Below, piece after piece: positions 10,772-61,948 of a stretch of DNA of 64,000 nt. Location of the stretch: positions 1 through 64,000 of the forward strand of contig LXFE01000167.1 of NCBI GenBank assembly GCA_001929475.1. The letters are read 5' to 3'. The notes beneath the pieces were generated by a model. The model made no database searches and was not told the DNA's origin. It worked only from the letters and a program-made list of their open reading frames with translations. Made by a program: the position numbers and the translations under genes. Source of the DNA: Neolecta irregularis DAH-3 (Eukaryota). The stretch's first letter is position 1. Every line of letters starts with the position of its first letter.

Positions 10772-12636
10772 TCAAAATTCAAAGAATTCCCGAAAGATGT
10801 TCACATCTGTCCCTGTAATTGCCAACTCCGATAGATCACGACGATCTTGACACATGAACACCCGTCTTAAGGTTTCCCATAAGTTACTTGAAATATTAAC
10901 ACCGCCTGGTACATCGCCTCTCTGGTGTTGTGCGAGGGCTCCAAGTAAATGTTGGGCAGCCTTAATGGTTTCAGAAGATACAAGGTTGCAGGAATATACT
11001 TCTTCATAGCATCCGATGTTGATGCAACTCACACCGAGATTATATCGGGCTCGAACGAAAGACGGGCTGATTTCAAGAGCCTTGTGATAGGCATTAATGG
11101 CCTCTTCACTTCTCCCCGAGTTTGCCAATGTAGCTCCGAGGCGATTCCATAAAAGATGGTCCTATTCATCAATATCGCCCTAATAGATACAAGATATACA
11201 TTCGGTCTACTACTCAAAGCCGCAGTGAAACAGTCGACAGCTTTATCGTAACTCTCGCTACCGTAAAATAGCACACCCAGGCCAACTTGAACGTCTGCAT
11301 CCATCTGAGCACCATTTGGGCTTAATTGTGCAGCATGGATGAATTGAGAGGTGACGCGTTGATGCAGTTGATCTCTACCTTGACCTTTTGGTATTGATGT
11401 CGTTAATGAAGGATATTTGGCAACGATCCAAGACTCCAAGGTCATATATGCAGCAGAATCATATCCTTCGTTCGTATAGCTAACTGCAAGTCCCTGGAGG
11501 ATTAATGAGCGTAATGTTCATACTTCATACCATCATAGCTTGAAGGTTTGTAGACTCAAGATTGGTGGCCTTGTCCAAAGCCCGGATGGCAGGTTCTTCC
11601 TTCTCATTCTGAGCTTGAACTAACCCCAATTGAGTCCATGCTTCAGCTCTACCCATATCCTGTTGCACAGCAGCTTCGAAGCATAGTGCAACTTCGGAAA
11701 GACTCGCACCGCTTTCCATTAACCGTAGACCTTCGGCAAATGGATCGACACGATTCAAATACGGATTGTCGAGTTCGAATTGATAGTCCCCAAGATCAGG
11801 CTTTTCATTGATTGAAAATGCATGAAGATCCTCAATCCCCGAAAACGAGGGGTTATCCTGTTGAATCCCATTCCAGATGCTCTCGAAATCTCCATGAAAC
11901 TGCTGGTTCATAAGTTCATCTTGAGATTCTTCTAAGCCTTCCTGTCTTTCCTGTTGAGATTCTTTCTCTAGAGCATCAAAATGTTCTTCCCAATTCTGAT
12001 CCGTAAGTTCGACCAGTTTTTCTTTTCCTTTCCTTAAGGGTTCATGATAAGAAGGCAGCTGGGTCAGCTGGGATCCGAAGGCGCCTTGGAACGACGGAAG
12101 CATGCGATTTCCCGGCATAAAAGCCTGAGGAGCATAGTTCACTGTTGATGACAAACTGAATTCCTCACGCCAAGCGGGGTTTGAGATTTCGTGCAGAGGC
12201 GACATCGACGGAACTCTTTGACGAGATGCAGACTCCATATGAGCCGCCCTTTCTGGAGGTAGCATATGGCGATCATTTTGAAATTCAGAAGACCATTCTA
12301 TGTTATTAGATAGCGAAGATATCGAAAGCAGTCGTGCCTCGGCCAGTCTGTTGAATCGCCCGGATCTCTCTAGAGATTCCATCAAAGCCAAAAGCTGGTT
12401 TATCTCCGAAGAATAAAATCTGGAATCATGTCAAGCATTTCAAAGCAGCAGGTCGGTACTTGCTGGTCTTGCTGATTTACATTGTGTGGTGCAGACCGGA
12501 AAGATTTGTGGATACTGGTATTCTGAGGAACTAGTCGATCTTGTTGAAGCGAAGCGTCCCTCGCAGCATGCTTTGAGAGCTGGCTTAGCGGATTTGCAGC
12601 AGCTGAACAGGCGGCACCGGAGAATAGATCAGACAT
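10772..12636 (-). CDS. PEX5: Peroxisomal PTS1 receptor Pex5 (5 introns, one GC-AG)
   Basis: N-terminal MSDLFSGAACSAAANPL with the conserved Cys, WxxxF motifs (WSSEF, WREEF, WEEHF), TPRs ending LANSGRSEEAINAYHKALEISPSFVRARYNLGVSCINIG. Confidence 0.96.
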
Positions 12637-12856
12637 AATTCTGGTGGGCAAGTCTCAATATGATGGCGGAGACTGAAAGGTGGAGGCAGGAGCCACGGTA
12701 AAAAACCAGAACTCCCATTCAGTCATATTTACTCATGCTAATTTGTTTATTGCGTACTAGTTCTGCTAAAAGATGCCGGGCTCTTTTTTGTACATCCCTC
12801 AGTCCCGAGACTGCGCAGAAAGGATCAGTGTATAAAGAAAGTTCAAGTCAAGGGTT

Positions 12857-14417
12857 TCAAAGATGGATAAAGTCCTGGCGAAAGCTTGAATCTGTTTCAG
12901 ATTCTGACATTTGGTCCGAATCCACATCATCAACACTGGAACTTGACTCACTGTCATGGTCAGACTCTTTCTCACTCGAATTGGCATCAGCGCTTTCATC
13001 AACGGAAAGATCTGCCTGAACAGGACTGGCCAGCCATTCGATTGGCCGAATCACATTGTCGATCACCATTGGCATAATGGGATTCCGTCGAAGATTTCGA
13101 GCTCTCGCTACGTGAGGAAGCTTACACTTAGCATTCGGACATGTGCCCTTCCTGTCGAACTCTGGACATTCATGAACATGTCGATCCTTACACTGTGCAC
13201 CTTGTTCACAATAGCCGTTAGTCGCAAAGTCTCGGCAAACAGGAGCTGTAGGGTTGACATGAACATGTGAAAACTTGCATCCTAGATTGGTACAAGTCCC
13301 CCGAGCAAAGAAATTGCACATAGGGACTCGATGAGGTGTTGGAGCATGCGACAGATCACAGGAGGACCCTAAACTGCAAGTTCCCTTCAAGACCCGAGGG
13401 CAAAGAGCCGTTTTGTCAGCATCGTGAATATACTGACATGCCGAGCCTCGAGTGCACGTACCTAGAGAACGACGTTAGAACAATTCTATAGTGCTACGAT
13501 CGATGATCGTTGCAACTGTAACGATTGAATACCGGTCCGCGTAAAGAAACTGCACAATTTGGTTTCTTTATTGTTGAATGAACTGGGTTTTCAGCGTCCG
13601 CCTCTAACGATGTAGCGCACCTTTTTATCTTCCGATTGATAGCGCTAGCAAGAACAAGGTTTCCGCCTTTGCTACGAATATACTCCACGCCAGCCACGGT
13701 AACCCTCCTTGGAGTCAAAGTTGAAGCAGTAGAAGAATCAGAAAGATCAACTTGCCGTTTTTTAGGTTGAGCCATACCTTGAAGTCGAAGCAATTTGCTA
13801 CCACCAGCAGAGACGACATACTTGATTCCGTTTACTGTGACTTGATTTCGCGCTGAGTTTGCGAGATGCAAAGCCAACCTCTGCTTCTCACATTCTTTTT
13901 GATTCTTTTGCGCTGATTCAGTCTTTTGAATCGCCACTCTTCGAGCACTGGACTTTTCTTTGAAGACGTCTTGGCTGATAATTTGAAGATGGCGCTCACG
14001 TTTTTGCACCCAGCCACCTGTAGCAGCAGCAGAAGAATCTGGGGAAAAAGCCAGGTCTTGTTGCATTGCCGCATTCTTATTATTTGAAGTAACCCCTGAA
14101 GAGTTTTTCGTCAATACCAGGGAACGGTGTCGCGATACATTCGCCTGCAAAGGACGAAAGTAAGGTTTCTGCTGATTCATGGATCGTTGGGCTGCAGAGA
14201 TTGTGAGCTTTGGGCTGGAAGGTTACAGAAACGTGCAATGTGGATGGTAATAGCCTTGGTGCGCAATTAATGCAGCAGAAGCAGTAGGATCCTGAGCATG
14301 TTTGTGTCTGTTGATGGCACCTGAAAAGCCTTAGTAGATGGCTGGATCAGACTGAAACATGCCGGCCAGTGAAGCGATATGTCTTTTAAGTTCCTCTTCA
14401 TCGGCTCCAGTCATCAT
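12857..14417 (-). CDS. Tandem CCCH zinc-finger protein, Red5/ZC3H3-like
   Basis: N-terminus EEELKRHIASLAGAINRHKH after a GC-AG intron. Multiple C-x7/8-C-x4/5-C-x3-H fingers at the C-terminus. Confidence 0.8.
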
Positions 14418-14613
14418 AGCAATGCGAAACACGGTAAATGTGCAGCAGCTAAGGGCGGTGTGGTGGTGGAAAGGGGAGGTTGTGGATTCTCAAGTCATGC
14501 GCCGCGTTGTTTCATGAGTATGTCATATACTAAAATTGCAAAACTCCGCATCCTTCACTCCGGATTCGGCATTTGATAATCATCCATTACCTCTATCTGC
14601 AAGGTCATTATAC

Positions 14614-15779
14614 CTAGGAATGATTAACTTGCATGTTCATAAAGCAAAAGTACTTTTCCTTCCATATCCACGAGCGCCCAGGTTCCTTGTTTCCTTTTTC
14701 TTCTGCCATTCTATATATCAATAGGCGCCGACAACCTGGAGTACCGGTAGTAGTGCGCAGCTGCCTTCTTATCCGTCTTGCAGCCTATGCCGTTGAGGTA
14801 ACAGTATGCTTCGCGGTCAAGATTGGTAGGAACAACGGAAATCAAACCGACTTCAGCCATAGCATCTGCATCACCAAGGCGAGCAGCAACTTCATAGTGT
14901 TGCCTGGCAGCCACCTGATCCCTCTTGACTCCCTGAATGTCATGAGAAAATTACTCCAATTGATGAGTTTGCTCTACCCATCCATTTCTGTACGAATTAC
15001 CCAATTCATATATCGCAAGCGTTAAGGCACCTTTCCCGACTGTTGAACTGAGTGCAGTAATTTCGAAATCAGCGGCACTAGGCATTGGCAAATGTTAAGG
15101 CTTGGGAACTATAAACCTTTGAGCTGCTGCCTTGAGATATAGAAGCGCCTTGTCTGGGTCTGTGCGACATCCCCAACCATGACTAAGGGAATTTTTCAGT
15201 CCCGAAAAAAACAGATAATACCGTAACGAGAGGCCGTATAAAAGCTGCCCAAATGATGATACTCCTTCTCTCGCATTTGCAACTTGTCCAAACAGGCGCG
15301 TCGCCCTTTCTAAATCTAGCTTTTGTTAGCTTTAATTTGATATGGGACTAGCCTCCATGTTCATGGAAACAAATAGCCCTGTTCATCAATTGTTCAATGC
15401 TGAGATATTTGTCTTCTTCCTCCTCTTCACCCAGTCGCTTAAGATTCTCTAGATCTTCTTGCATAAAGGCATTATCGCTTATCACCTCGGATCGATTCAA
15501 TTTGGGCAATACTGAAGGCCCAGGTGAATGTGCAAGTATTGTCGCACGCTTCTCCCAATCCCTTTCTGTATCCCCACCAGACTCCAGACTGTGTGTACGT
15601 GACTTGAAAGACTTTACCAGTTCCGGCTTGGTAAAAATTGTGAATAGCGATCTCCGGTTTCGCATCTTCTTAGACTTGTCTGGTATCGCGATATCGTCCG
15701 GACCCAGGTCATCCTTGGATTTTGATTTTGACTTCGTGATACGGCGGGAGATCTTATTGAAAGGATTGCGGGTTGACAT
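14614..15779 (-). CDS. Sel1-like repeat protein, Dsf2/Nif1 family
   Basis: AICFHEHGDLERAT..., LLYGLSLRHGWGC, YEVAARLGDADAMAEVAYCYLNGIGCKTDKKAAAHYYR, terminal SWIWKEKY. Confidence 0.8.
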
Positions 15780-16167
15780 GTGGGTTAAGGGCGCCTATCA
15801 GTGCTTGTCCAAAAATTACTCCTAAAAATAAAAGCTGAGAACAGGGGACGATTTTATTAATTGTCACATTTCAGTTCATATCGGGCCGATATACCCACTA
15901 TAAAGATATTTGTGCTAAGAGATATAGAGGGGTGAATTGTCAAAGGGTGTGAATCAGGAACAGGCAACCTTTCTACAAGTTCATTTTACCGTAGAGTCTG
16001 TAATTTTGAAAAAGCTCCGTTAGGTATATTTTTGACAAATAAAATTTGTCTATAAAAAATGCATTGTAACTGTCGAAACGAACAAAACTAGGCGAAGAAC
16101 AATGCTATGACACCTTAGACCGTCATGAGTTGGAAACGCCACCCAAAATTAGAAACCACGTACTGCC

Positions 16168-21665: not shown

Positions 21666-24600
21666 CTACGGTATGCCAAACATCGATTTGAGATGTTTGA
21701 CGAGGCCCCATTCCTCCTTGGTGACATCATTTCGATAAAACTCCTTGAGTGTATCAATCGATTTACGACTGATTAATGAGTAGAGAACATCCGATTCATC
21801 CAGATGTCGTCCAAATAAAGGCTGACTTGAGCCTTCTATTTTAATGGCAACTCCTGCTCCGGCTTGGCCTTTCTTGACAGAATCTACCGTCTTGTGATTC
21901 ACTTCCATGCTTACTCTATAGTAAGGATCAGGAAGTAAGACAAAACTAGTGACTTACATCCTACCGAGCTCCATTGTAATCTTTTCATGAGTAACAGGGT
22001 CTATTTTTAGCGCACATATGGGTGTGCCGACCTTTAGCACACCTTCTGCTACATCAACGCCAAGAACGATTGGGTCCTTTTTATTGAAAACAGCAAGGGT
22101 TTTCAAAATACATGGGAATACCACCTGGTGAGCTGATTCCTTACGCCGAAGTTCCGTAATTTCTTTTTGATAGGCGGTAAAAGCATCGAATAGGTGGTAA
22201 ATGATATTTGCCGAAAATATCTTCACCCCAACTTCTTCCGCTAAAACTTCTGCGTCCTTGTCAACTTTGACATCGAAACACAATATAACTGCAAGCCTAA
22301 AATTCTGTCAAAATACGGATGACAGCCGTCATTTCATACTCTTTGGCTTTCTCGAGCATCGTTCCAGCTCTCATAATATCCTTCTTGTATACAGGACCAA
22401 TGTTAATCGCCGAAACTGGTATTTTACTGGTTCTCAGGAATTCGAGCAAAGCTTCGAGAGAACCAAGCGTTGATGCTTGAACGCATACACCACGTCCAGA
22501 AGTATCAATACGACTCATCAAATCTTGTAGGTCCTCCATGACTTCATCCTTCAAGTCTTCTTCGTCATCATCAGGTCCAACTACAAGCAATCGAGACCCG
22601 GCAATAGCTTTTTCGAGATCGTGAGCGGTAATCTTGACTCCCAAAGCAGCCTTGACTTCTTTGTGGTGGACGTAAGTTCCCTTAACTCGCATTTCTTTGA
22701 GAGGTTGAGGAGTCAGTAACGCACGGACATTCGTTGCAATTGCTCCATTTAGACCACAAAGCACAATACGATCACCTTCACGTAGGACACCGTTCGAAAG
22801 AACTACATCTATCGTCGTCCCGAGACCTTCAATAACTTTTACTTCAAGGACAGTGCACTCGAGTTCGGATAAGTACATCAATGTATCGCTCATACGATTT
22901 TGAGTGAGGCTGACAAGAAGCATCAGCATATCGGGTACGCCTTCGCCTGTAATAGCCGATGTTGGCACCAAAGAAACATTTTTTGCCATATTCTTGTTTT
23001 CCCAATAAACCTCTGAATTGAGACCTTGCTCAGCCAAAGCGACTTTGGTGTCAAGGAGACGCTTCTCGAACTCGTTCCTAACGGCTTGCGTCTGTTTGGA
23101 TAGAGATTCGCGAACAGCACAGTCAGGAGTTGCTTGCCACAGGTAAAGACGATCGATCTGAGATGTAAGAGCCAGAGTGAACGATGGTATATACTTTATT
23201 CAAAGCGACAATGAAGGGTGTCTTTTTATCTCTCAACAATCGTAATGATTCGATCGTCTGAGGTTCGAGACCGTGCATGATATCGATGACAAGGATTGCG
23301 ATATTGCACAACGATGAGCCACGAGTTCGAAGGTTCGTAAAAGATTCATGTCCCGGGGTATCAATGACCAGAAGACCAGGAACTTTATACTCTTGTTTCC
23401 CGTCCTAAAGCTTCGTCAGAACCCTATCTACTGCACGAACCTTATTGAGACAAAAGGTCTTCTTCTTGATTACATCCATTGGGAAATACGTTGCACCGAT
23501 TTGTTGAGTAATACCACCAGCTTCACCTTCTTGGACGTTCGTCTGACGGATCTTGTCGAGAAGTTTAGTTTTACCAGTATCGACATGGCCGAGAATACAG
23601 CATATGGGCGAGCGTAGATCATCTTTCGAGCGTGCTGCCAATGCTTCCTGGTGACGTTTCTGCTGTTAGAAGCATTCCTCAATGCAGACAAACCTCCCTG
23701 CGATCAGCAGCTTCGACCTTCCGCTGAGCTTCCATCTTCCGTGTTGTGGATTGTAGTACTTCGTCATCTTCAGAATTAGTACCGCTCTCGTCTTCATTTC
23801 CATCCTGGCCCTCGTCCTCGTCTTCACTGTGTGACTTCTCTTCATCGATATTATCGAGTGCTTTGGATAGAATAGGTTTTAAGGATTTCTCATTATCCGA
23901 GGGAATATCCCATGAATCTTTCACGTCATCATCACTCTGTATGCCAGCTTCCCAATCGTCTGCAACAATTATTTCATCCTGTTCGACCGGTTGTGCTATG
24001 ACAATGGCCTCGGACTGCTCGGGCGGGTTGGCAGCTTCTATCGCTATTTCTTTCACAGCAATTTCCGTTTGCTTAGCTCTATCACCCTTCTTTTTCCGCG
24101 AACCATAGGCAGGTCGCCTAGGCCTCAAATCCGCCGAATCTGCTTGTTCAAGACCAGCCACAATTATATTTCCTGCCTCAAGCATTTGTTCTTTTCGCCG
24201 TTCAGCCATCTTTTGTTGCTCTTTTTGTCTTTTCGTAAGATATTTTCCGGATGCTTTCAATTGCTCCTTCTTGGCCTAAACTTGTAAGACACGACTTTAT
24301 GTACTGAAGCATATCCTCTCGCGCTCCTTCTTGAGTTGTTTCTGTTCCTCGATCCGCTGAGCATCCTCGGCGGCCTTGCGTTCTTCCTCTTCTATACGCC
24401 TGATATTAGTTCATATCTTTCAGAAAGACGTCCAATTTCTCTTCTGCTTCGGCGCGCAGTCTCGCTTCCTCTGCCGCCCTTTGCTGCTCCACAAGTTTAC
24501 GCAGAGCACCGACAGGGGCTTTGGACTTTTTTGGAATAGGCTCGGTAGCCTTAGTCTTCTTCTTCTTCTTCTTCCTAGAGCATTAACAAAAACTGCGGTG

Positions 24601-28522: not shown

Positions 28523-31500
28523 ATGAATCCGAATAAGCACCAACTTTTGCATCACACAATTGCAGCCTCCCCACAAATTAAATTTGCCTTATCTGGAGAA
28601 TTTCGGTACGACAGTCCACACGATCTCGTTCTTATAAAACACCACGCGATAGAGTTTTATGAACTGCAAGAAAGCGGAGAACTAATTTGTTTATCTAACC
28701 AGTTTCTGCCTTTTGGTATTCAAGATGCGAAAGTCTATCATCCTTCAACAGGAAGAAGCAACTTAGAACTAGGGTTACAACAGACGCAAGAAAAAGTTGA
28801 AATTGGGGAAGAAAGCTTCGATGTTGATATGATTGTATGTTCGACTGATACCGGAAAACTTCTCTACTTGACTTGGAATGATAATTTACCATGTCCTTCC
28901 AAATATGCCAATGGCGGAAAACTTCACCCTTTTGAATTAAGGGAAGACTCGTCATTTCACCAGGAGGGTTATTTTGAAATATATTGGGAGCTATGCTTGG
29001 GGCCCGTCGGCATGTTAGGTTCTTTAGGCAAGGAGGTTTCTGTGGATCCTCTGTAGGATGTCTTGGCGATAGAGCTCGACTAATTTTACAAGGTCACGAG
29101 CAGTAGCAGGTTCATTGAACATAGAACCCCTGAACTAATGATTCAGTATCTGCATGGGAGAGTTATGTTGCAATTCACATCCCGTTGAAATATACGAATG
29201 CAAAATCTCAACCCCTGCATGTCTCAAATTCTTTTTTGGATTCATTTTAATTGAAAGGTTATTGAGGTTGGTGATCTCATCTGGCACGCAGTATTTTTGT
29301 ATCCGCAGCCTGGGAGAGAAGAAAGATTACTGCTGGCTATATATATGACTGAGTATGTCTCTTAAGATATGCTTGAACTAAGAGGAGGGGCCATGACTAT
29401 TTGCGCCTGTTTGAATGGTTCGTCGGACGCCCAATTCACGAATTCCATCGAAAAGGAAGCTTGCCTCTGCAGCAAGGTATTGTCTCAAATATGTATAGGT
29501 GATGACAGGAGGAATGACTCGTCCGTTACATCTTTTATCGTTGGCATCTGAGCCAGAAGCTTTTGTGCTAATAACTGTCTTTGAGATCCAGACTGATTAA
29601 TTTCTAACGTCTAGAAAACAAAGATCTTTTCATTTACCGCGAAGGACATCATTTCTGGCAACATTGAGCCTCAAGAAGAACAATTATTACCGGACTCGAT
29701 CGGTATTCTTAATGCCATCTCACGTTGTCCAATGCCAAATCGAACATGGGAGTCTTTTTGGGCAATTTCAGACTTAGGGACTATAGTGAAACTCACTTTT
29801 GTCTCAGGAACACTTGATCGTGAAAGTTTAGCATTCCCTGCTTCGTTGGACAACAATTCACAACATATTCTTCCCGGTTCAGTGCTTGTTAGTATACCTG
29901 TGGACAGCCGAACGGTTGATATACTATTTGTAGGTGGAGATGCAAGCGATTCTGCGTTATACCTTCTCGAGCACGATTCTTTTGGCTCAAGTGGGCATCC
30001 AAATCTCATACATTTGTCAAGTATTCCAAGCTGGGGAGCTGTCCGCGACGCAGTGATAGCGCCCCCGAAGGATCCAGGTAATGAATTGTCTTCAAGGAAT
30101 CAGGCTCTTTTATTTGTCGCTTCTGGCTTTGATAACGCAGCAAGCGTTTCCAGATTGCAGATTGCCCATCAGGGCTCAGTAGTCCATGAGACAGAAATCC
30201 AGTAGGAAGCTCTCATTTCCCTCAATACTGATTATTAGGGCTGAGAATTTATGGTCATTGATACATGCAGAGCAGTCATTACTTATAATATCGACGCCTT
30301 GGGGCTCACAAGCCATGACTCGAAGTTGTTCGAACGAACTTGAAGGTTGTAGTGAGCGAGTGGGATTGTTGGAGGAGGAACCAACTTTAGCCGCAGAGAG
30401 CTGGAATACAATCCTTACTCAAATCACTCCTTCCCAAATCCGATTGAGCAAAGCGACCTTTGACGAACGCTCTCAAATGACCAAGATATCGTTGACTGAT
30501 ACATCTCGTCAATACCTCGTCGCTGATGTTTGCCAGGACTTGATTGTGGTAGTTATCAAGTCTACCCCCACCCCTAAACTCGCTATTGCCCGATCTGTAT
30601 GCGAAAGCGGGTATTTAGAAGATTCACCTCTGGTTTGACAATAAGAGCGCTGTTCATACAATGGACACAATGTACTGTTAAGTTAGAAGCCCAGCCATCG
30701 CTAGTACGGATATTTCTCTCTAACAGGTACGCATTCATTGTGAGCATCATACATCCTTAAACCATAGGTTTGAAAACCAGCATGATTATTGCATGGTTCT
30801 CGTGTCACTACACAATGGCGAAGTTCTGCTCTTTACAGTCTCTCGCCGTGACGTACCAGAACTGCATTTGTCTGCCAAAGAAATTCTCCATCACGGCATC
30901 GCAGCCCAGAGTGTCAGCCAATATCATCATAGGCCATCTATTATTGATCATGCAGCACTTCTCTCGAATCATTATCGTCAATTGCTAGTACTCGGGAGTC
31001 GCTCTGGAATCTTGATTCTTTGGGAACTTTTTAAAATCGACGGTTCTCTTCGCTAGATGCTTCAATGTTGACGTATCAGGGTTTCTAAAGTTTGGATCAC
31101 GCATAGAGAGAATGATTGATGGGAATCCTGTCCATCTCGATCCCTGCTACACATCGCGATATCAACCTTGGACGTCTTGTCTTGTAATGACGGCAGATAC
31201 CCAAATATTAAGACTGGATGGTCACTTGATAGCAATAGCGACTCTGATTATCCAACCTACCGGATTCGAAAAAGGACACCAAATGAACATTTGCGGAAAA
31301 TCGATATGCATGAACGAGCAAAAGTTTTTAAGGGTCACTCCATTTAAATTTGATGATGAAGATAACCGACATTATCAAAGCTTTGCATCTGTTTCCGAAA
31401 AAGATAATATTCGAACACTAAAATTTATCAAAATCAGGATGAGAAATACGATATTAGTGATGAAATTCTACCTTCCTATTAGTGTAGGTCATTCCACCGA

Positions 31501-32903
31501 GATAAGGTCAGAAGCACTTACGACGTAGAATCCTAAACGAATGATATATTCATCTCATCTCGATCTTCTTGTACTGTCTTTGAACCCATCATCGACCTCA
31601 GATCAAACTCTAGCCCAAGAGAGATTTGCTTTTCTAGATCCCCGGAGGTATGTAATACTAATTAGCCCCTGAAAATTCATTGATTAGTGGTCATTTTCTG
31701 ATGCAGCAGGAGGAAGGTCAACAAGCTATATGTTCTACAATCATAGGTCTGAATGACTTGATTACTTCTATGACAAGTGTGATATCTGCTCCGGTTGACC
31801 ACTAACTGCAAGTTTGTTCGATCTTATTGTCCGGATCTCTGGAAAATGTTTTAGTTGTGGGCCTCACAAACCAGTCCCGTAGTAAAATATTTCGGTGTCT
31901 AGTTTTCAATATAAGCCGAGGTGGTAGCCGAGTATATATGAATACTCTTGATGAGATTACCTGCAATGGCCTTGTGAGTGAAGTTGTCGGAATCGATGAA
32001 TATGGGTAGGTTTGTTCATTTCTTCGAGGAGGTTGAAAATAGAATCATCGCTATCTGCTCTGGATGCGATCTGATCTTTTATAGATGGATTTCAAGCCAA
32101 AACTCGTGTGTTGCCTTGCATTACCTTATCTAACGCGATAGCTTCCAACCTTTGCCTTGTGGTCCCTTCCGTCTGAGATCAGCAGTAATTCGTTTCCATT
32201 ATTCCGAAAACGTGTTATGTGCTGTATTGCCAAATGATCCTACCACGCTTTTCAAACTTCAAGTCGGTATTATGGGTGACGATGGAATCCCGACCATAAC
32301 CTTTTGCATGCATGAGGGGTAGATCATCCCGGCCTAATTTCGTCGAATAATTTCAAGATACTCGCTGGCGCCATCAAATGGAATTGCTCTTTCCTCTTGT
32401 GGCTCTGGGAATCTTGTTCAAGCAAACAGAAATGGCACAGTAATATTCTGGTCAAGTAATATATTAACAAATAAATTACTTTCTCACTATAAGATGTGCC
32501 CACTAATCAGGGTTTGTCAGATGAGGTCATTGAAATTCAATTGAAATCTCGAAGCATCGCAATTCTCCCGCGACCCGAACGGAGAGACATTCTTACAGTT
32601 GCAATCAATGGTGAAATCACACGGATCATATCGCTTTCTACTTTTCAGTATTACCTCTTGTCTCAGATAGAGAATGCACGTTCACAGGAAAATTCTCCCG
32701 AAAAAAGTCTTGGTATGTTTAAATCAAATTTGTCCTAACCTGAAGGTCATTCCAAGGATGGCGGTTTTTGGGTGGAGAATGGCGACTTTTTGGCTAGTAT
32801 AAGATTCAACTTTGAAACTGCAGCGTTGATAAAATCTTTGAGCAAGAACGAACAAGATGATGTAAACGAATTGAGAAAGGCGTTGGATTTTGTTTTTCCA
32901 TAA
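28523..32903 (+). CDS. Mms1/DDB1/CPSF-A-like multi-beta-propeller protein (many introns)
   Basis: LGKEVSVDPLSRAVAVSAWE, IWHAVFLYP, IPSWGAVRD, LFVASG...SVSRLQIAH, LLEEEPTLAA...ILTQITPSQIRL resemble the MMS1_N region. Internal exon structure only partly resolved. Confidence 0.7.
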
Positions 32904-44192: not shown

Positions 44193-45357
44193 ATGGATGC
44201 CTTCAAAAAGCTCAATCTAGACAGCGTCCAAACCCAGTTTTCGGGATTTGCTCCGTTTGCACAGCGCGCAAGGCAGTATGTCGGCGAAAAGATTGGTACT
44301 GCCGATGATGTGGTACTACTCTACAAATAGCAGAACCAACCAAAGAACGCGTACTGACTTATTCTAGACAGAGCTTCCAAAGGAATATCTCGATCTGGAA
44401 AAACGCGTAGATAACCTGCGACTTACCCATCAAAAGCTTTTGGCCATCACGTATGTTATTATCACTTCCGGCCTTTGATGGAATTATAAGAATAAAATGC
44501 TGACTTATAAGCTCCCAATACCAAAATGAAGGCTACGATTATCCTCCGAATCTCGTACGCACATCGTGCGCTTGGATTCTGACAATTTTAGCGAGAGTCA
44601 TTTGTTGATCTTGGCAAAACTATCAGCGGAAAGGTTCAAAGCTTGGCCGCAGCTCAAAGTGCCCAGGAGGCTCAGGAGGCTCTCGTTCGATCAACACCTA
44701 AAGGCCCACCAAAGACTCTAAACCATGCCCTTGCCCGTGCATCCCTAGCTGCTTCCGAGTCTATTGGCGGACAGGATTCGTTTTCTACAGCGCTTCAGAA
44801 ATATGCTGTCGCGCAACAGAAAGGCTAGACTTGATATGGCCACTATATACTGACAAACAGTCGGCGATGCTCGATTAGCTCAAGATTTGTTGATCACATC
44901 GCGATTCAATTCAGCTATCGCAGCTAGCTTGAACACCAACCTGCAATTTGCCCAGCGAGCGCGACGATCTGTTCAGAATGCGCGATTGACTCTTGATTCT
45001 GCCAAGAGTGTTGCCAAATCAGCTCGACCAGATAGAAAGAATGATGCTCGAATGGACGTCGAAAAAGCCGAAGACGACTTCGTTGCTGCTGTGGAAGAAG
45101 CCATGCAGGTTTTCCACGCTGCTCTTGATTCTCCCGAGCCGGTATGAACTCTCATCTCATTCTTTGCTGATCGCCAGCTACGAAATCTGGCTGACCTGGC
45201 CAAGGCCCAGTTGCAATTCCATAAAGAAACTACGAACGTATGTGATCATACTGTTATCTCATTAAAACAATAGATTCTTTCTGAAGTTGTTCCAGAAATC
45301 GAGGAGTTGCAAAACATCCAAGAAACTCACTTTCGAAACACCAGAAATGATCCTTAG
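44193..45357 (+). CDS. GVP36: BAR-domain protein Gvp36-like (6 introns, one GC-AG)
   Basis: TELPKEYLDLEKRVDNLR, YQNEGYDYPPNLRESF, PKTLNHALARAS, VQNARLTLD, EKAEDDFVAAVEEA. Confidence 0.88.
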
Positions 45358-45536: not shown

Positions 45537-47736
45537 TTATCGGCGATCAGTTTTGCCATTATTCCGTTTTCCACTAAAGAGATGTTTGGGTCGAACATTC
45601 GGAACGTGGCGATCAGCTTCACCGGCTCTAGCCATTCGATTGGCTTTCTTCTGTTGCATCCTGGATATCTTTTCCGCAATGCCTTTAGCTGTGAGGTCCT
45701 TGATGCCTGCTTCCCGCCGATTAGAACTGGGTTCCCGAACACGAGATCTCGAGGACATCCGTGACGCATCCCGCATAACAACTTCGGCGCCAGAAGGAGG
45801 CGCTGCATATCTTGAGCGAGATCGAGTGCGTTCCTCGATAGACCGTGAGCTGAGACCGATTTTTGAAAGATGACTCTTGAGATCTGACATTTTCTTGTGG
45901 ACGGCTTTTCGCGGAATAATCGCCCGATTTTTCAATGCTGATTTTTTATTCTGGGCGGCTCTTTGGATCATCGCATTCTTGTTTCGAATCATGTTTGCCT
46001 TGGCATGGAGAGCAGTCTGCTCTTCGTCGGACTTGAGGTTGTCAATGATTGGAGGTTGCTAGGATATAATACCATGTCCTGATCAGAATCGTAAAACCCT
46101 TTGCTCTCGAGTGCTTCTTCTTCTTCCTCAAGAGCAATAAGTCTTGCTTCAATATCAGGATCGATGAAATCTGCAACATTCTTTCCATCGAGAAGTTCAG
46201 GAATAGGATCATGCTTCCACTCGGGATATTCAAGAAGGTATTGCTCTAAAGAATGTTGGTTTTTTTATATTAGATATTAGGATCATACGTTTGAGATCAA
46301 CGTTATATACACCGGCACCACCGTTTGCTTCCTCGATTTCCCTAGCAAGAGGTTTTCTGAGTGAATTATCCTGACCCTTAGCAGTCCGTTTTTGTAAAAC
46401 GGCATCAGGGATGCAGGGAAGCCTTGGTTCATTGTCTCGAGCAACTGGTCTGGCGAGATGAATTTTATTGAGAACTCTGTTTATTTTGCTGCCTTTGAGT
46501 TTGGCTTCGACTCTGGACGCGAGAAGTTTATCACATGCCTGTATTGTGAGACTCTATATAGTCAACTTTAGATACCTTTGTGCGAACATCCATAACGCCT
46601 TCATCGGTGAAGCAACTGGTCTGCATAACTTCGACATCACCCATAGACAGGATTGAATCGAGAAGTTCTTTGCTTTGTGGGTCGAGATGTTCGATTCTCA
46701 TGACATCACACTTATTGATTACGAGGACAGTGACTTTGTTGGCAAACAGAGGTTTAATGCTTTGAAAGAGGTTGATCTGGGCTTCAATAGAGTATCCGCA
46801 CTGCTCGCTGAGGTCCATAAAGTATAGGATACAAGCGCGAAGATGTGCCAGAGCAGTGATACTCTGCATTTCGATTGTATTCATCTCTTCGAGAGGGTGG
46901 TCAAGAATACCTGGGGTATCGACAACCTGCCATCTGAGATATTTGTAATCCATATGGCCGACAAAAAGAGACTTTGTAGTAAAAGCATAGGGCTGAACAT
47001 CAACTTCGGCGCGAGTGATTTTGTTGATGAAAGAAGACTTTCCGACATTCGGATACCCACAGAGGATGAGGGTACGAGTGTTGGGATCGATGGAGGGAAG
47101 ACGAGATAGATGCTGGCGGACTTGTTCGAGATAAGCGAGAGGATCTTTCTGGCGCCTGATAATCGTAGCCATTCTACATATTGGTCATGGCAATGAAGGA
47201 GCAAGAGATACCTGCCAAGAGCTGCCCTTTTAAGCTGCTTACATCGGTACAGGGAATCGCCAAATTTCATTAAACGAACATAGTCTCTGGAGACTTGTTC
47301 AATGAGGTGCCTTGCGGTTGAAATTTGAGAGAGTGCGATTTTAAGGTGGTCTCTATCATAGAGAATGTTTATGAGATCTAAGATAAGAAGACACAGCGTA
47401 GGAGTAATATACCGGCATGGAAGGGGTGGCAATCGTTGAGCTTTGGAAACTGGTCGAGAATGGCGGACAGTTTTGCGGAAAAGGTATCTTGGGTGAATTT
47501 TACTTTGCGGGCATAGAAGGAGCGGATTCGCGAGATCTATAATGGGATAAGCTGGATCTCGGAGCAAAAAAAGGCAGCGACCTTGAAGTTCTTGTGGATG
47601 ATGGTGGGGGTCTGTGAGATCAGCATCGCTGTGGGGGAAGGCGGACCTTTCGCTGGGTACGGGAAAGCGCAATGTCGATAAAGGCTGTGGCAGGCGGGAC
47701 GGGCTGGATTGCAGAGAAAGTCTTTGGGGCAGCCAT
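45537..47736 (-). CDS. NOG1: Nucleolar GTP-binding protein Nog1 (60S biogenesis)
   Basis: [74 protein letters not shown]...TDRR*. Confidence 0.97.
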
Positions 47737-47797: not shown

Positions 47798-47842
47798 CTA
47801 ATCTCAGTAGAGTTTGATCCGCCCCGCCCTCACCGCCATTGA

Positions 47843-49343
47843 ATGTTGAGTCGCACGCGCACGGCCGTGGCCAGGCCAGCAGCATCTGCAAAGCGCTGGT
47901 TCTCTGTCGCTAGGCGCGCAAGCACCGCCGTGCCCATACTGCAGTTCTCCGACGAAGAAACCGCCCTGCAAGAAACCGGTTTGTCGCATCCAGGCCCCAA
48001 TTAACCCGCCAGTCGCGCAATTCGCCGCCCGAGTCATCCAGCCCCGCGTCCAAGAGATGGACGAAAACGAAGCCATTGACAAGGAGGTCATTGCGGACCT
48101 CTTCCGCCAGGGAGTGTGTGTCTTCGCCGTCCTGCTTGTTGACGCTCGCAGCTCATGGGCATCGAAACACCCACAGCCCTTGGCGGCGCTGGAGCCTCCT
48201 TCACCTCTGCCATAATCGCCATCGAGGAACTGGCACGCGTCGATCCCAGTGTGTCCGTCATGTGCGATGTCCATGTGTGTCCCTGTTCTGCGCTGTTTTC
48301 TCCTCATCTCCTAGAACACACTCGTCAACACATGCTTCCGCAGCTATGCCTCTCAGGCCCTCAAAGAAAAATATCTCCCTCGGTTGTCCACAGAAAGTAT
48401 CGGCTCTTTCTGTCTTTCAGAACCCGCATCTGGCTCAGATGCCTTTGCCATGAAAGCGAGAGCAGAAAAGACCCCGGATGGCTACAAACTCAATGGATCC
48501 AAAATGTGGATCACAAATGCCGCCGATGCAGACATCTTCCTGATTTTCGCCAACCTCGATCCTAGCCAGGGCTACAAAGGAATCACATGTTTTGTCGCAG
48601 AAAAGGATTGGGGCATCAAAATCGCAAAAAAGGAAAGGAAGGTTGGTCGTTTTTCATTCTTCAATATTCTCAAGGTTAGCTTGGCATCCGTGCCTCATCA
48701 ACTTGTTCGATCCACTTTGATGATCTCCACGTTCCCAATGAAAACTTGCTCGGGAAGGAAGGTCAAGGCTACAAATATGCTATTGAGCTTTTGAATGAGG
48801 GTCGAATTGGAATTGCTGCCCAAATGACTGGCCTGGCTCTAGGTGCTTATGAGAAAGCCGTCTCATACTGCGTCAATGACAGACAGCAGTTTGGGCAATC
48901 AATCGGGGACTTTCAAGGAATGCAGTTTCAGTTCGCCCAAGCATACACAGAACTCGAAGCTGCTCGGTTACTCACATACAATGCAGCTCGACTGAAGGAG
49001 AACGGATTGCCTTTTGTCATTGCCGCTGCCCAAGCCAAGTATATCATTATCATAGAACGCATTTCTAATTTTCAGACTCTACTCGAGTCAGGTTGCGCAA
49101 AAGGTGAGCGGTCTGAGCATCGAATGGATGGGCGGTGTGGGGTTCACTCGAGAAACTGGGGTCGAGAAATTTTGGAGGTCAGGTCTCATCAATACTATGC
49201 AGACTAACAAGACCAGGGATTCGAAAATTGGTGCAATCTACGAAGGGACTTCTAATCTACAGGATGTCCCATGTTGAGTTTCAACTAACATGGGTAGGTT
49301 GCAGACGATTGCAAAACATATCAAGAAGACCTACACCAGATAA
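47843..49343 (+). CDS. Mitochondrial short/branched-chain acyl-CoA dehydrogenase (7 introns, last one GG-AG)
   Basis: Arg-rich presequence, [70 protein letters not shown]. Confidence 0.93.
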
Positions 49344-54009: not shown

Positions 54010-54019
54010 ACATGGTATT

Positions 54020-54034
54020 TTAGGGTTAGGGTTA
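54020..54034 (+). repeat. Short interstitial TTAGGGTTAGGGTTA
   Basis: Two and a half perfect TTAGGG units 10 nt downstream of a stop codon. Confidence 0.6.
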
Positions 54035-55260: not shown

Positions 55261-57003
55261 TCAAAGAGCACGCCCACCTAAAATTTCCACTTTTAGCTTT
55301 GCCATAGCTTCTTTGTAAAGTGTCGGACACCTTTCGTCAATTTTGCCATCTGCCCATTCTACCTCGTTACTTCTTCCAATGCCATTGACGATAGACTGCT
55401 CGACCCATTTCTCCTGACCTTTTTCTACCAAGGTCAAAGCCAACCCATCTTTTCCAGCTCGAGCAGTCCTTCCAACACGATGCACATACTGTCCGATATC
55501 TCGGGGCAGGTCGTAGTTGATCACGCGTTGTACTTGTAAATCGATTCCTCGTGCCATTAAATCGGTGCATATTAAAACATGAATTGAACCGCCAGAAAAT
55601 TTTGATAGAAGCGGTTTTCGTGATGCATTATCAGAGGAATACAGCCCTGACTGAATATCGCAATATGAAAGCAACTTGTGGAGGCGGGAGGCTGTATCGG
55701 TCGACTTTGCAAATACCAGAACAGATGGCTGATTTTGTAGAAGGCTAAACAGATGTAGGGGTTTTGCATCCGTTGACACTCTGTAAAACTTTTCGCATAA
55801 GGTAGATGGAAGATACGATATTAGGTCGTCATCTTTCATTCTGACATCTGAGATTATCATCCTCGGGAATGAGAGTTTCAAGCCCGTTAAGCTTTCAAGA
55901 TTTCGAGTTTGAGTGGCAGAAAATATCATTTTTCTACATTTTAAAGAATGTGGGTTGGAGAGAATAGTATCATCAAATAGAGTCAAAAATGATTCAGATA
56001 CCACTGAGTTTGATGAGAGCGATGGCGAGTGGATTGCCGAGATGACGATGGCGACCCAATTTTGAAATCGTGAGTGTAGCAAACGATCTGCTTCGTCAAT
56101 GATTAAGTACTGGAGATGCTGAAGCGAGAAGAAAGGAGTCGATTCAATATGGGAAACAAGGCGTCCTGGCGTTGTGATGACTATATCGAGACTTCAGATC
56201 AGCCAAGGATACTGATGATGTAAAAAACCCAGGGAAAGACTCTTGCTCCGTGACAAAAGACTTAATTCCAAAAGTGCCAACCTAAAACATTAACTGCAAC
56301 TACAAAAGGAGATAATACAAGTAATCCACTTCCTCCAGCGAAAAACTCCATTACTCGATGAATTTGCATAACGAGTTCCTTCGTAGGAACCAGAATCAAA
56401 GCACGTATCCTGGGGACAGTCCGACTGGACAACGCCTAATGTCATCAGCAACTGTGTTTCTGTAAGAAGTCTCGCTTCAATAACAGGAATCCCATAACTC
56501 AGTGTTTTACCACTACCTGTTGGTGCACAAATACACAAATCTCCTGGCTCTTTCAGCAAATTCCACACTTTTGCCTGCACTGCGAATGCAAATTCCAGCT
56601 TTTCTTGCCTCAGCCTTGATAATAACCGGGACGAGATAGCAAGATCAGAAAAAAGTATGGGTTCATTTGCATCTAGAATAATCGGATGGCGAAGCCACTC
56701 TGGCAGACCTGCCGAGCTATCAAGTTTTACGAATGCAGCTTGAGATGACTCGAGAGATAAATCTGGAAACGCTTCAAGATCACCGCTCGGTGCTGTCTCC
56801 TGTTCAGCCTCAATTGTTTTGGGTTCCTTGGCAATTTTCTCTTGCTGAGATGAATGAAATTTCGCGGTTTGAGCATCTGAAAGCCCATTGTCGTCAACTT
56901 CTACCTCTTGGTCTCTATTTCCATCGCCATAGTCCTTTCGCTTCCTCTTTTGATTCAGTTTGTGCGGAATCTTCTTGTCTTTGGTTTTCACTGATGCAGC
57001 CAT
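55261..57003 (-). CDS. DBP6: DEAD-box RNA helicase Dbp6/DDX51 (3 introns, one GC-AG)
   Basis: [72 protein letters not shown]. Confidence 0.9.
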
Positions 57004-57084
57004 CTATTCTTCTTCACAAAGAAGCGTAAATGAGATGGATGCTATTGGCTTTTCATGACATCCCCAACCGACATCTGGTTTCCC

Positions 57085-57092
57085 TCACGTGA
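57085..57092. promoter_or_regulatory. TCACGTGA element, followed by ATTGG (CCAAT box), in the DBP6/SDA1 divergent promoter
   Basis: 8-bp palindrome near the middle of a 150-nt ATG-to-ATG gap. Confidence 0.55.
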
Positions 57093-57153
57093 TTGGTAAC
57101 TCGCCTCTAAAATATTTCCTATCGGCCAAGGACCTTGCCATTGATTCGACGGA

Positions 57154-59476
57154 ATGGTCAAACGTTCTCGTGCAGCGTTGTTGCCGACGAACCTACCGCA
57201 TCTACAGAACCTCACAAAGCGAGATCCACTATCATATACTGAAGAATTTCGTCAACAATGGAATCACTACTTAGCGACTCTAGATGTTTTCCTTGCAAAC
57301 CCCACAGAAAACGCCGATAGTTTCGCTGAAGTCGTAGGCTTCATCGCACAGGTAGCTACTTGCTTTCCTGTGGAAACATCAGACTTTCCTCATGATCTTG
57401 TACGTTTGCTCAAAACACACCATGAAATGCTACTACCAGAACTGCGCGAAAAACTTGTCAAATCTCTCGTAATGCTGCGAAATAAAGGGGTGATAGATTC
57501 CCTCACTCTCTTGCAGTCACTTTTCCCTCTTTTAATCGCTACCCATTCAAAGACACTTCGTCAGCATCTCTATGCGACTATCTCCTCAGATATCCGAACT
57601 TCAAACTCGAAGGCCAAAAACCATAAACTCAACGGAACCATCCAGAGCATGTTGTTTAATCTTCTCGCAGAGCAAATTCCCTCTGGGGTTTGGGCGACAA
57701 AGCTTGTCAGGGAGATGTGGAGGAGAAATATCTGGAATGATTCCCGAACTGTGGAAATTATGAAAGAAGCTTCGCTGCATTCTAATACAAGGATTGTGGT
57801 GGGTGGGGTGCGATTCTTTTTGGGACATGATGAGGAGGAAAGCGATGAAGAAGAAGATTCTATCGACGTTAAACGGCTTATCCATCAGGCTGGCATCAAT
57901 AAGAAAAATCACGGTCGCGATAGTAAAATTTCCAAAGCAATTGCTACTGTCAAAAAAGGACCACCCTTACTCTTCCTTTGCTAACAATGCAGCGTGAGAA
58001 GAAGAAAAATAAAGGCGATCTATTCAACTTCTCTGCCTTACACATATTAAACAATCCTCAAGGATTTGCAGAGTCTTTATTCACAAAGCACCTATCGAAG
58101 TCTACAAAACTGTCATTAGAACATAGACTTCTTGTTCTACAACTTCTATCACGATTAATCGGCGTTCACAAACTTACCATATTAGGTGTATATTCGTATC
58201 TACAAAAGTAAGCACTCATAGCAGATGTTAACTTATATCAATAGATATCTCACTCCTCACCAACGAGATGTCACTCATTTTCTTGCTTGCGTAGCTCAGG
58301 CGAGCCACGAATTTATTCCACCTGATGTTATTAGTCCTGTTATTAGAAAAATTGCGGATGAATTTGTCACAGGCGGTGTTGCTAGCGAAGTCGTCTGTGC
58401 TGGGTTTGCTGATTTTCAAATTCACAATTGACAGAAGCCTGAATGCAATTAGAGAGATTTGTGCCCGTTCGCCTTTGTCCCTTTCCGAAGATATGTTGCA
58501 GGATCTCACTGAATACAAGTCTTCGAAGGATAAAGGTGTGATGATGGCTTCGCGAAGCTTAATTGGGCTCTATCGAACGGTTGCTCCGGAAATGCTCAAG
58601 CGGAGAGACCGAGGGAAAATAGTTAGCATGGGAATGGAAAATAGTGCCGCAAATTGGAGGTTTGGGGATGAGCGTGGCGTTCAAAGGGGTATAGATGGAT
58701 TGGAACTTCTCGAGACAGAAGGTATTGAAGCTGAAATCGATGACGAAAAAGGTAAGAACATTGTTTCCTATTAATTCTAACTGTAGGATGGGAAAAGTGG
58801 AATGTTGAAAAAGATGCAAGCGATAGCGATGGGTCAAGCGGCTGGATCAATGTCGGAAGTGACAACATTGATATCAATATTTCGGACAGTGACGATGAAA
58901 CACAAAATGCTGAAGGCGATCAAGATACCGAGAGCAATGTGAAGCTAACAGGAACTGAAGGGCTTCACAGTATCGCAACAACGAGGGTATCTGGTCCATC
59001 CTTGATAGGCTAATCATAGATACTCACACCTGCCGATTTTGCAAGACTGTCTGAGCTCCGTGAAAAGTCTGCCGTCGATAGGCAGTTAGGAAAGCCTTCC
59101 AAGTAATTTTCTTTCGTATTTATTACTTATTCATCAGGCGTCTACCGGAATTAGAATTTGTGGATAACACAGCTATTGAGGGCCCTCGAAAGAAAGTCAG
59201 AGCGACATATGCTGAGCGAATGCAGAGTGTACAAGAAGGGCGAGAAGGCCGGGAGAAGTTCGGTAGTCGAAAAGGAAATCGAGAAGAGAACGGCAGGAGC
59301 ACCACTAATCGACAAAAAGCATTGTTTCCCCATTCTTAGTCTGCTAACGGTGTCAGGCCCGTAAGAAGAACTTCATGATGATTGTGCACAAGAAGGAAGT
59401 CAAAGGCAAAGTAAAGGTATCGCTTATGGATAAACAAAAAGCCCTGCGAGATCATAAAGTGAAGAAGTCGAAATAG
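57154..59476 (+). CDS. SDA1: Sda1, 60S subunit biogenesis protein
   Basis: MVKRSRAALLPTNLPHLQNLTKRDPLSYTEEF, FNFSALHILNNPQGFAE, YLTPHQRDVT, STTNRQKARKKNFMM. Confidence 0.96.
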
Positions 59477-59566
59477 ACGACAGTTATTATTATACATGCA
59501 CAAAAATGAAACCACCAGTAGACTCTTGAAATTTGTCTATAGCTTTATTTTGCTTTCGGCGTTTTA

Positions 59567-61948
59567 TCAACGCCTTAACGACTTTTTCTGAGGTTTCTTT
59601 TTAGAATCCGTTCGATCACATGTTGTCTTCTTGTAGCTTCGTTTCTCCACAGCAAGCATCTTCTTCCGTTTCTTGCTGCTCAATTTTTCTTTCGACTTCG
59701 TAGGACCATTTACTTTCGCTAAGGATTAGTCCACGAAAAGTAAGATGTGAGACCATCGGAGACTTTCTTATCGTTTGCTTTTAAAAACCATGTCCTTGCA
59801 GGGCGACTCCTTATCTCGGCTTCATGTTTGACGAAATTCTCACCCTTCTGAAGCTCCATTTCGGCCTGGCAAAGCTATATGTTGGTTAATTTCTTGTAGA
59901 GTTTAGAATACAGCCTTCTCTTCTTTCTCTTCCACTAAAGTTGCGTCCACATCTTCCGCCAACTTTGCTAAACGGACAGCCCATTTTTCCAGTCCCGTTG
60001 CATCCAGAGTTCGACTTCTGACATCGCCCTTTTGAGCGTCGGCGCTCTTGACTGCAAGTTTAACAATTTTACGGTCAGCTTCCCCAGCAAGGGTAACCGC
60101 GCAACCATTTCGTCCAGCTCGAGCAGTTCGACCCACCCTATGGAGATACATATCGTGTGACTGCGGTGCCTCGTAGTTAATGACAACATCAATCCCTTTG
60201 ATATCGAGACCACGCGATGCAAGATCGGTGGCGAGCAAAAAGTCAACTCTCCCATCTCGGAACTGCTCTAATGCAGTAACTCGTTGTTCTTGGGATAGAG
60301 AACCGTGGAGATCGGCAGCCTTAAACCCCAAAAGTCCAAAAATAATGCGCATACGGTGAGCCATAACTTTGGATCTGAAAAAGACAAGAACTCTATTCTT
60401 GTAGATAGATGAAGCAAGCAACAAAAGCATGGCCGAACGCAAGTGTTCTTTCTGCGGTCTTATTCGAATGAATTCCTGGGTTAAAGAGGAGGCAACACTA
60501 TGCTTGGGATCGACGAGCAGACGGACAGGCTTATTGAGAGAAAGTCGAATAAGGCTGTCAATCTGCCAGGATTAGTACGCGACTATGAACACCCGCTGGT
60601 ACATCTTCTGTCATTGTCGCAGAGAATAACATTGTCTGCCGCGACTTGGGACAAAGTCGTATGATTTCGTCAAGTTCTTTGGCAAAACCATCCTCAAGCA
60701 TCCTTTAGACTTGAGTAAATTCTTGAGAAGATTACATACCGATCGGCTTCGTCTATGACCATGATTTCGATATTTTCGATCGTAAAGCCGGTCGAGTTGC
60801 GAGCATGATCAATAAATCGTCCAGGAGTGGCAATAACAACGTCTGGCTTTTTCCGCAAGTCAAGCTCCTGAGTCTTTAGAGACAGCCCGCCCAAAATGTC
60901 AGTTTCTACGGGAAACTTGGTAACAAACCCACACAAAGGCAGAAAGTCACATCGGTGTAAGTGGCTAGACGAATAGCTACACTGTGGCATTGCATAGCCA
61001 ACTCTCGGGTTGGGCACATGATCAATACCCTTGAAGTGGGTACTTTCTTGGGCCGGTATAAGAGCCGTTCAAGTATGGGGACAATGAAAGCTGCAGTTTT
61101 CCCAGAACCTGTGACTGCACCACCCACAACATCTTTCCCAAGAAGTGCAATAGGTATAGTCTTCTGCTGAATTACCGTCGGTGTAGAGAAACCAACAGAG
61201 GATAGACCCTTCAAGATTGGTCTCGATAAATTCATATTGTTGAAGGATGTAACCGTGACATTGCTATCTTCGGATGGACCTGCAAAGTACTCCTGTCTTC
61301 GCGCGGTTTCTTCTGCAGTTTCAGGTTCTGATCCTGAAGCAATGTCATCAGGATGTTCGAAGGGAACTGCTATTGACCCATCAGAGTCCGAGTTACGATC
61401 TTCGTCGATATCTTCTTCCGAAATTTCATCAGGTTCATCCCTAGTTTTGACGCCCATTCCAAACCCGTCTGCCGCTAAGCCATTAGATTAATTCAAATAT
61501 TGTTCATGCCGATATCTTCATCATCAAGAGCAAAGTTTCCAAATGCCTCGCTCTCATCTTCCCATTCATATGATATCTCATCACTAACTTCTGGACCGTG
61601 TTCTTCAACAGATTCTATGAGGAGATGTGTTCCTTGAGCTGATCGATGTCGCTTAATGATGTCCTCGATGTTGATATCTTTTTTTCTCTTGGTCTTCATT
61701 GCATCCTTTGCCTTATCAAATCCCCACTCCTGCATAGTCCCTAGATCCTGTCTTCCATATCCCGCAGCATCGAAGTCAAAATCTAGGTCGATATCTGCAC
61801 ATTTTCTCTTCTTGGTGGCATTTTCCTCAGGGAGCACTTCATGGCTCGAGTCCTCGCTTGCAGATAGCTCGGACTCTTCGTCGTCCTCTATAGTCAAAAC
61901 AAAGTCATCAGCCTTTGCGCGCAGTTTTCTGGACGTATTTGTAGACAT
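59567..61948 (-). CDS. DRS1: DEAD-box RNA helicase Drs1/DDX27 (one GC-AG and one apparent GT-GG intron)
   Basis: [77 protein letters not shown]. Confidence 0.95.

Follow-up and report, generated by a model that had tools for sequence, protein, structure and literature searches.

The window analysed here comprises positions 1 to 64,000 of contig LXFE01000167.1 from Neolecta irregularis DAH-3 (assembly GCA_001929475.1, forward strand; 64,000 nucleotides (nt) in total). Among its genes are those for PEX5, eIF5B, NOG1, SDA1, the helicase DRS1, an acyl-CoA dehydrogenase, a DEAD-box helicase, a BAR_2-domain protein and a member of the RSE1/DDB1/CPSF1 family, and the subject of this work is a set of short introns in such genes that do not follow the GT-AG rule. 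All results are based on the window DNA, homologous proteins and profile matches. The G+C content was 42–50% per 4-kb bin across the window, in agreement with the 44% reported for the published N. irregularis assembly (14.5 Mb, 199-fold coverage; PMC5309816). The translation of an exon at 59906-60571 (minus strand, 222 amino acids (aa)) showed 100% identity to the public N. irregularis DAH-3 ATP-dependent RNA helicase drs1 (P0001), and the PEX5 exon showed 100% identity to the public N. irregularis protein P0391.

Genes were predicted with a purpose-written gene finder that combined a 3-periodic Markov coding score with an intron model, whose inputs were donor context, branch motif, branch-to-3' distance and length, and with a calibrated intron penalty. 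The program was seeded with 20 introns from a listing of open reading frame (ORF) junctions, the listing itself being too noisy, and then retrained in repeated rounds on the GT-AG introns that it had itself predicted. When only GT-AG introns were allowed, 27 genes with 48,069 coding nt were predicted, and these contained 145 introns, a number matching the 130–150 introns estimated in the initial annotation. The predicted canonical introns have a median length of 37 nt (5–95%, 32–44 nt; range, 30–61 nt; n = 145) and a CTRAY-like branch site with a median of 8 nt (6–11 nt) between the branch A and the 3' end. Their acceptors read TAG (75), CAG (42), AAG (27) or GAG (1). Past the GT, donor conservation is weak, with the top hexamer, GTATGT, present in only 11 of the 145 introns, and for this reason a simple motif scan by donor class was uninformative.

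Beside these ~145 predicted GT-AG introns, ten non-canonical introns were classified as firm, comprising five GC-AG, three GG-AG, one AT-AG and one GT-GG intron (Table 1). Each of them departs from GT...AG by one base only, as proposed in the initial annotation, which had placed the deviation mainly at one normally invariant base and had described a typical local length and a branch-like motif. Indeed, the ten introns are 34–40 nt long, the nine that were scored have 6–9 nt after the branch A, and length, branch motif and branch-to-3' spacing are typical of the local U2-type introns. Homology fixes the length of each gap, and its place to ~2 nt, so that GG-AG, AT-AG and GT-GG denote the placements nearest to GT-AG. 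None of the five non-GC sites has a same-length GT-AG placement. At three of the ten firm sites there is no in-frame GT-AG alternative; elsewhere, such alternatives delete or replace conserved residues.

Table 1. Non-canonical introns, open candidates and one reassigned intron in the window
Gene	Intron type	Position	Strand	Length (nt)	Details	Status
Gene of no matched family	GC-AG	8463-8503	+	41	Gene-finder choice, 94th percentile	Open candidate
PEX5	GC-AG	12298-12337	-	40		Firm
Sel1-repeat gene (weak Sel1 match)	GC-AG	15316-15352	-	37	Gene-finder choice, 83rd percentile	Open candidate
eIF5B	AT-AG	24276-24314	-	39	ATATGC...CTTAC...TTTAG; in-frame stop inside	Firm
eIF5B	GG-AG	24400-24433	-	34	GGACGT...AACTAAT...CAG	Firm
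RSE1/DDB1/CPSF1-family gene	GC-AG	29459-29498	+	40		Open candidate
BAR_2-domain gene	GC-AG	44824-44860	+	37	Phase 1	Firm
NOG1	GT-AG	47537-47581	-	45	Replaces rejected 47537-47575	Canonical
Acyl-CoA dehydrogenase	GG-AG	49262-49297	+	36	GGATGT...AACTAAC...TAG	Firm
DEAD-box helicase	GC-AG	56436-56475	-	40	Just after motif I	Firm
SDA1	GG-AG	57958-57992	+	35	GGACCA...GCTAAC...CAG	Firm
SDA1, C-terminus	GC-AG	59319-59356	+	38		Firm
DRS1	GT-GG	60891-60928	-	38	Phase 1; GTTTGT...AACTGAC...TTTTGG	Firm
DRS1	GC-AG	61475-61509	-	35		Firm

The gene for eIF5B contains two of the non-GC introns. At the GG-AG intron, the frame upstream of 24433 reaches a stop inside the gap, and the next exon lies in a different frame. 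The motif starting right at the acceptor (24400) is carried by 83 of the 120 eIF5B homologues listed. No GT donor in phase with this acceptor was found at any position, and every one of the 12 in-frame GT-AG alternatives for the intron removes at least three codons of the conserved motif. Spliced alignments with homologues set a 34-nt gap 2 nt away in five of eight cases and a nearby variant in the other three. The score in the intron model (terminal dinucleotides left out, ranked among the 145 predicted canonical introns) lies at the 86th percentile. For the AT-AG intron, a 39-nt gap 2 nt away was set in 5/8 spliced alignments, the score lies at the 97th percentile, and the two in-frame GT-AG alternatives both score -6 or lower and both delete at least four codons. 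The motif-to-motif distance in the eIF5B homologues listed is 37 residues, a value that the window reproduces (28 + 9 = 37) only when both gaps are removed. A single canonical intron of 154 nt spanning both gaps (24276-24429) was rejected, because it would skip a conserved exon. The top eIF5B match by E-value was P0121 (6.7e-234, 67% identity, 1678 aa), a record that its source marks as unverified contamination in a chytrid assembly; the eIF5B protein of N. irregularis itself is not among the 120 proteins listed.

Removal of the GG-AG intron from the acyl-CoA dehydrogenase gene, which has GA-GG (49263-49298) as its slide-equivalent placement, yields a 15-mer identical in two homologues and a 3-residue spacer that matches 39 of the 40 motif-bearing homologues. 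The GT-AG alternative 49266-49304 was discarded, since it gives a 2-residue spacer found in none of these 40 proteins; its intron-model score lies at the 4th percentile, compared with the 94th for the GG-AG intron. A 45-nt micro-exon (49217-49261, plus strand) is situated between the canonical intron 49178-49216 and the GG-AG intron. The relative P0242, a 478-aa acyl-CoA dehydrogenase aligned to 49217-49340, carries an 11-residue insert exactly at the position of the GG-AG intron, and this insert looks like an unspliced in-frame intron at the same position in the gene model of another species.

Two further cases were found in SDA1. With the GG-AG intron removed, the numbering of chain 8pv4_CR is unbroken (280, 281, 282): its residue 280 pairs with the end of the upstream exon at 57957, and its residue 282 with the second residue after the junction. 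The last four residues of the exon before 57958 are identical in chain 5jcs_r, and GT-AG 57949-57992 was rejected as a replacement because it turns three of these four into intron. Closer to the C-terminus, the SDA1 frame stops within the gap formed by the GC-AG intron, whose removal is needed to reach the SDA1_C domain: the 39 aa downstream of it match positions 9–45 of the 46 positions of the SDA1_C profile (E = 3.9e-11). The in-frame GT-AG alternatives at this site delete 32–37 codons.

In DRS1, a spacer of seven residues precedes a conserved GG motif in 115 of 119 homologues, and the window matches this arrangement only if the GT-GG intron is removed; all seven spacer residues then obtained are seen at their respective homologue columns. 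The slide-equivalents of this intron are GG-TG and TT-GG. Dinucleotide-blind spliced alignment chose a slide-equivalent in 5/7 cases; in the remaining 2/7 it kept the donor and set the acceptor 3 nt further upstream. A 55-nt GT-AG alternative is out of frame. The public DRS1 model P0001 uses GT-AG 60916-60950 instead, which puts eight unrelated residues in place of the conserved 7-residue helicase segment. The second DRS1 intron, of the GC-AG type, brings in an upstream exon, matched by Saitoella DRS1 and dropped by the public model; it has no in-frame GT-AG alternatives. P0001 (568 aa; locus 59570-61957, minus strand) takes an internal Met (61457) as its start and does not include the conserved upstream exon(s) at ~61510-61810. 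Both errors of P0001, the loss of upstream sequence and the replaced helicase segment, arise because the model avoids the GC-AG and the GT-GG intron.

The remaining firm introns are of the GC-AG type. In the DEAD-box helicase, a match to the DEAD profile (positions 2–36) ends at the second-to-last residue upstream of the intron, and a second match (42–73) begins at downstream residue 6. Chain 3dkp_A is numbered continuously across the junction, with residue 88 at the second-to-last upstream residue and residue 99 at downstream residue 10; the final residues of the upstream exon are also found in chains 2pl3_A and 6l5l_A. No GT-AG alternative scores above 0.7. In the BAR_2-domain gene, profile position 160 falls on residue 76 of the 77 upstream residues and position 164 on downstream residue 2, which leaves no gap given the split codon, and the number of in-frame GT-AG alternatives is zero. 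The PEX5 intron likewise has no in-frame GT-AG alternative, and it scores at the 97th percentile. The public N. irregularis model P0391 uses exactly this GC-AG junction, and the frame restored by it aligns with two homologues from Saitoella and one from Tuber. The public PEX5 model also contains a canonical 40-nt first intron (12420-12459, minus strand) that was missed by the canonical-only models, in which a 65-nt or 56-nt intron was chosen; the gene finder thus errs at weak sites.

The GC-AG class was additionally assessed by a class test, in which GT-AG plus one extra intron class was allowed at a time and 255 classes were compared by score gain. GC-AG ranked first, with a gain of 74.7 bits from eight introns (runner-up, 58.6; class means, ~13–15). 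The initial annotation had listed eight GC-AG introns without coordinates as part of a total of at least 13 non-canonical introns. Its five non-GC sites, for which coordinates were given, are present in the sequence as described, and residue-level homology supports each of them. For the GC-AG class, nine candidates were found, five of them firm, three open and one refuted, leaving ten firm non-canonical introns in place of 13. Two of the open candidates have an in-frame GT-AG alternative, located at 8448-8503 in the gene of no matched family and at 15316-15370 in the Sel1-repeat gene. The third lies in the RSE1/DDB1/CPSF1-family gene (28523-32903, plus strand), which canonical-only models cut in two at 29365/29514, with beta-propellers one and two flanking the cut. 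The refuted candidate, GC-AG 47537-47575 (minus strand) in NOG1, gives a middle exon of 12 residues where ten are needed: according to chain 8esq_b, the first NOG1 exon extends to residue 29 and the third begins with residue 40, which leaves a 10-residue middle exon, as given by the canonical model. Three other spots were discarded. At 5717-5766 and 14933-14977, canonical GT-AG solutions exist, and 10620-10652, which has a GC donor and whose acceptor lies 3 nt beyond an AG, lacked support from conservation.

Ten firm cases among ~155 introns exceed what is expected for a fungus. At the 1.3% of non-GT-AG introns reported for this group, where 98.7% of introns are given as GT-AG overall (PMC7072748), the probability of this outcome is 4e-5; the five non-GC cases, measured against an assumed 0.3%, have P = 1e-4. 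The nine scored firm sites lie at the 13th–97th percentile of the intron model, six of them at or above the 70th, and the four scored canonical alternatives lie at the 0–4th percentile. When all non-canonical classes carried a uniform penalty of 12 bits, nine non-canonical calls were obtained, three of them from one-mismatch classes; two others pair a GC donor with an acceptor that lies 3 nt beyond an AG (the firm site at 44824 and the discarded 10620-10652).

Several observations speak against a reading of these sites as spliced introns. The dinucleotide-blind aligner often set the gap 1–2 nt off, at borders that do not resemble splice sites, and gained one residue by doing so. A scan based on signals alone revealed no intron class in excess, with ~2.7 intron-like matches per class in sense and antisense alike. 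In the class test, unrelated classes also patched the same problem regions, at ~3 'introns' per class on average, and one of the eight GC-AG introns it delivered, that in NOG1, proved wrong. With a uniform penalty of 8 bits, the number of non-canonical calls rose to 49, most of which were noise. In NOG1, the true, canonical intron reaches only the 4th percentile, which demonstrates that weak-looking canonical introns exist and that a low model score cannot dismiss a canonical alternative. Moreover, the intron model was trained on its own predictions, and the window was picked for looking odd, so that its rate may not hold genome-wide. In view of the weaknesses of the scan, the class test and the penalty settings, the case rests on the residue-level tests and not on the intron model.

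On the basis of these tests, we consider it probable (roughly 0.72) that the firm sites are ordinary short U2-type introns with one deviant terminal base each that are still removed at these borders. The borders are fixed to ~2 nt, workable GT-AG alternatives are absent and the number of cases exceeds fungal norms; splicing at these borders itself we infer because only such removal yields conserved proteins. The explanation that comes next would be splicing at canonical sites close by, of the kind used in the public DRS1 model, or retention of the introns, with N. irregularis proteins that differ from those of its relatives at these places. In-frame GT-AG alternatives at seven of the ten firm sites, the canonical outcome for the GC-AG candidate in NOG1 and the occurrence of weak-looking canonical introns lend it some weight. 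We nevertheless judge it unlikely, since retention runs into in-frame stops, three firm sites are without any in-frame GT-AG alternative, and the alternatives available elsewhere make residues intronic that match homologues, namely all seven DRS1 spacer residues, the dehydrogenase 15-mer and the shared exon-final residues of SDA1.

It is slightly less probable still that the deviant bases stem from misassembly or from minor alleles of the wild fruiting bodies, the expressed alleles being GT-AG. The assembly was indeed obtained from field-collected fruiting bodies and is reported to have an N50 of 16 kb, but the reported coverage is 199-fold (PMC5309816). Furthermore, ten deviations at ~620 terminal positions would need an error rate of ~1.6% per base, at which stops and frameshifts should abound in the 48 kb of coding sequence; instead, frames of 849–980 codons are open and exons match their homologues without shifts. 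One of the GC-AG junctions is, in addition, already part of the public PEX5 model P0391. Removal by other machinery appears very improbable, whether the AT-AG intron is assigned to a minor (U12-type) spliceosome or a structure-guided excision like that of euglenids is assumed. The AT-AG donor in eIF5B may resemble the U12-type donor consensus, which would favour the former. However, the local U2-type branch motif and spacing are found at all of these introns, the AT-AG intron included, and folding of the ten introns with their flanks gave z-scores of -2.39 to +1.74 (five of ten above zero) and no common structure, in contrast to the stable pairing of intron ends in euglenid non-conventional introns. 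No convincing case of a minor intron in the Ascomycota was found in a survey (PMC10639083). Nested twin introns should be impossible by size alone.

Taken as U2-type introns removed at their deviant borders, the ten sites would carry T to C or G at donor position +2, G to A at donor position +1 or A to G at acceptor position -2. Recognition would then rest on other, unusually regular signals, which would include the length of 32–44 nt, the CTRAY branch located 6–11 nt from the 3' end and some signal at donor positions +3 to +6. In model yeasts, splicing is blocked or stalled by A at +1 in an intron that ends in AG, and also by G at -2. Some tolerance is thus implied here, and tolerance of deviant termini in N. 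irregularis seems the simplest reading, because eIF5B, DRS1, SDA1, PEX5, the dehydrogenase, the DEAD-box helicase and the BAR-domain protein, which are conserved and for the most part essential, need such introns to be removed exactly. To this extent, the relaxed splice-site recognition suggested in the initial annotation is supported by the conserved proteins. The missing information could come from the narrow range of lengths and the fixed branch spacing, in the manner of a length ruler, with which the data are compatible. The tolerance may stem from a changed spliceosome (U1, U6, U2AF or Prp8), the initial annotation having proposed U1, U6 or Prp8 and, perhaps, intron length as a ruler. Equally, it may reflect drift, with slightly harmful mutations that became fixed and are still processed at reduced efficiency by an ordinary spliceosome. 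A search of the window against Rfam gave no match of any kind, and hence no small nuclear RNA (snRNA), and none of the window genes was identified as encoding a splicing factor with a role in choosing the 5' splice site.

Whether 5–10% of N. irregularis introns are removed at non-GT-AG borders genome-wide, including borders with A at +1 and an AG end or with G at -2, is in our estimation an even bet. If so, this would be the first case of a relaxed major spliceosome in a fungus, and the machinery may gauge introns of 32–44 nt from the branch site. The GT-AG rule is among the firmest in eukaryotic gene structure, and the lineages known so far to bend it (a few animals and protists) have revealed the spliceosome components on which its enforcement depends; a fungus near the yeast models would offer a tractable comparison for splice-site proofreading. 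In practical terms, gene models restricted to GT-AG and GC-AG introns would be wrong at such sites, as exemplified by the public DRS1 model, and comparative studies using the proteome would inherit the errors. The initial annotation had noted that the phenomenon may already be described for this organism. No statement on unusual Neolecta splice sites was found by the paper searches made or in passages of PMC5309816, PMC8476143, PMC7072748, PMC10878826, PMC6292966, PMC13263728 and bioRxiv 2019.12.16.879015, and the main text of the genome paper (PMC5309816) contains no word beginning with 'intron' or 'splic', although its supplementary methods may hold intron statistics. RNA sequencing data of N. 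irregularis are listed as publicly available under GSE300630 (2026 paper, PMC13263728), and the same paper names a second, independent assembly.

Among the systems available for comparison, the cyanase gene of Saitoella complicata, for which a manual model with a 51-bp intron lacking a canonical 3' acceptor has been reported (PMC6292966), shares with N. irregularis an odd splice site and differs in being a single anecdote with neither RNA support nor a rate. The eIF5B intron 24276-24314 is like U12-type introns with AT ends in having A at +1 and unlike them in its length of 39 nt, its AG end and its local U2-type branch spacing. The five firm GC-AG introns are like the GC-AG introns of the major spliceosome in that a GC donor and an AG acceptor are combined with otherwise normal U2-type signals. 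Their share, by contrast, is unusual, since GC-AG is reported to make up <1% of introns in model organisms (PMC7072748) and here accounts for five firm cases among ~155 introns (3%), or up to eight (5%). In some tunicate genomes (Oikopleura, Fritillaria), 95% of introns are reported to break the rule, with U2AF and N6-methyladenosine (m6A) in snRNA named as causes (PMC13326754), and the copepod Eurytemora affinis is reported to have GA-AG introns (PMC7072748). The tunicates and the copepod appear to be the closest known cases of many non-GT donors. The present findings differ from them in concerning a fungus, in the share of ~6–8% (10–13 of ~155 introns in one window) and in the spectrum, in which GC is followed by GG, AT and a GG acceptor; they resemble them in the many non-GT donors that would be handled by one spliceosome in a compact genome with short introns.

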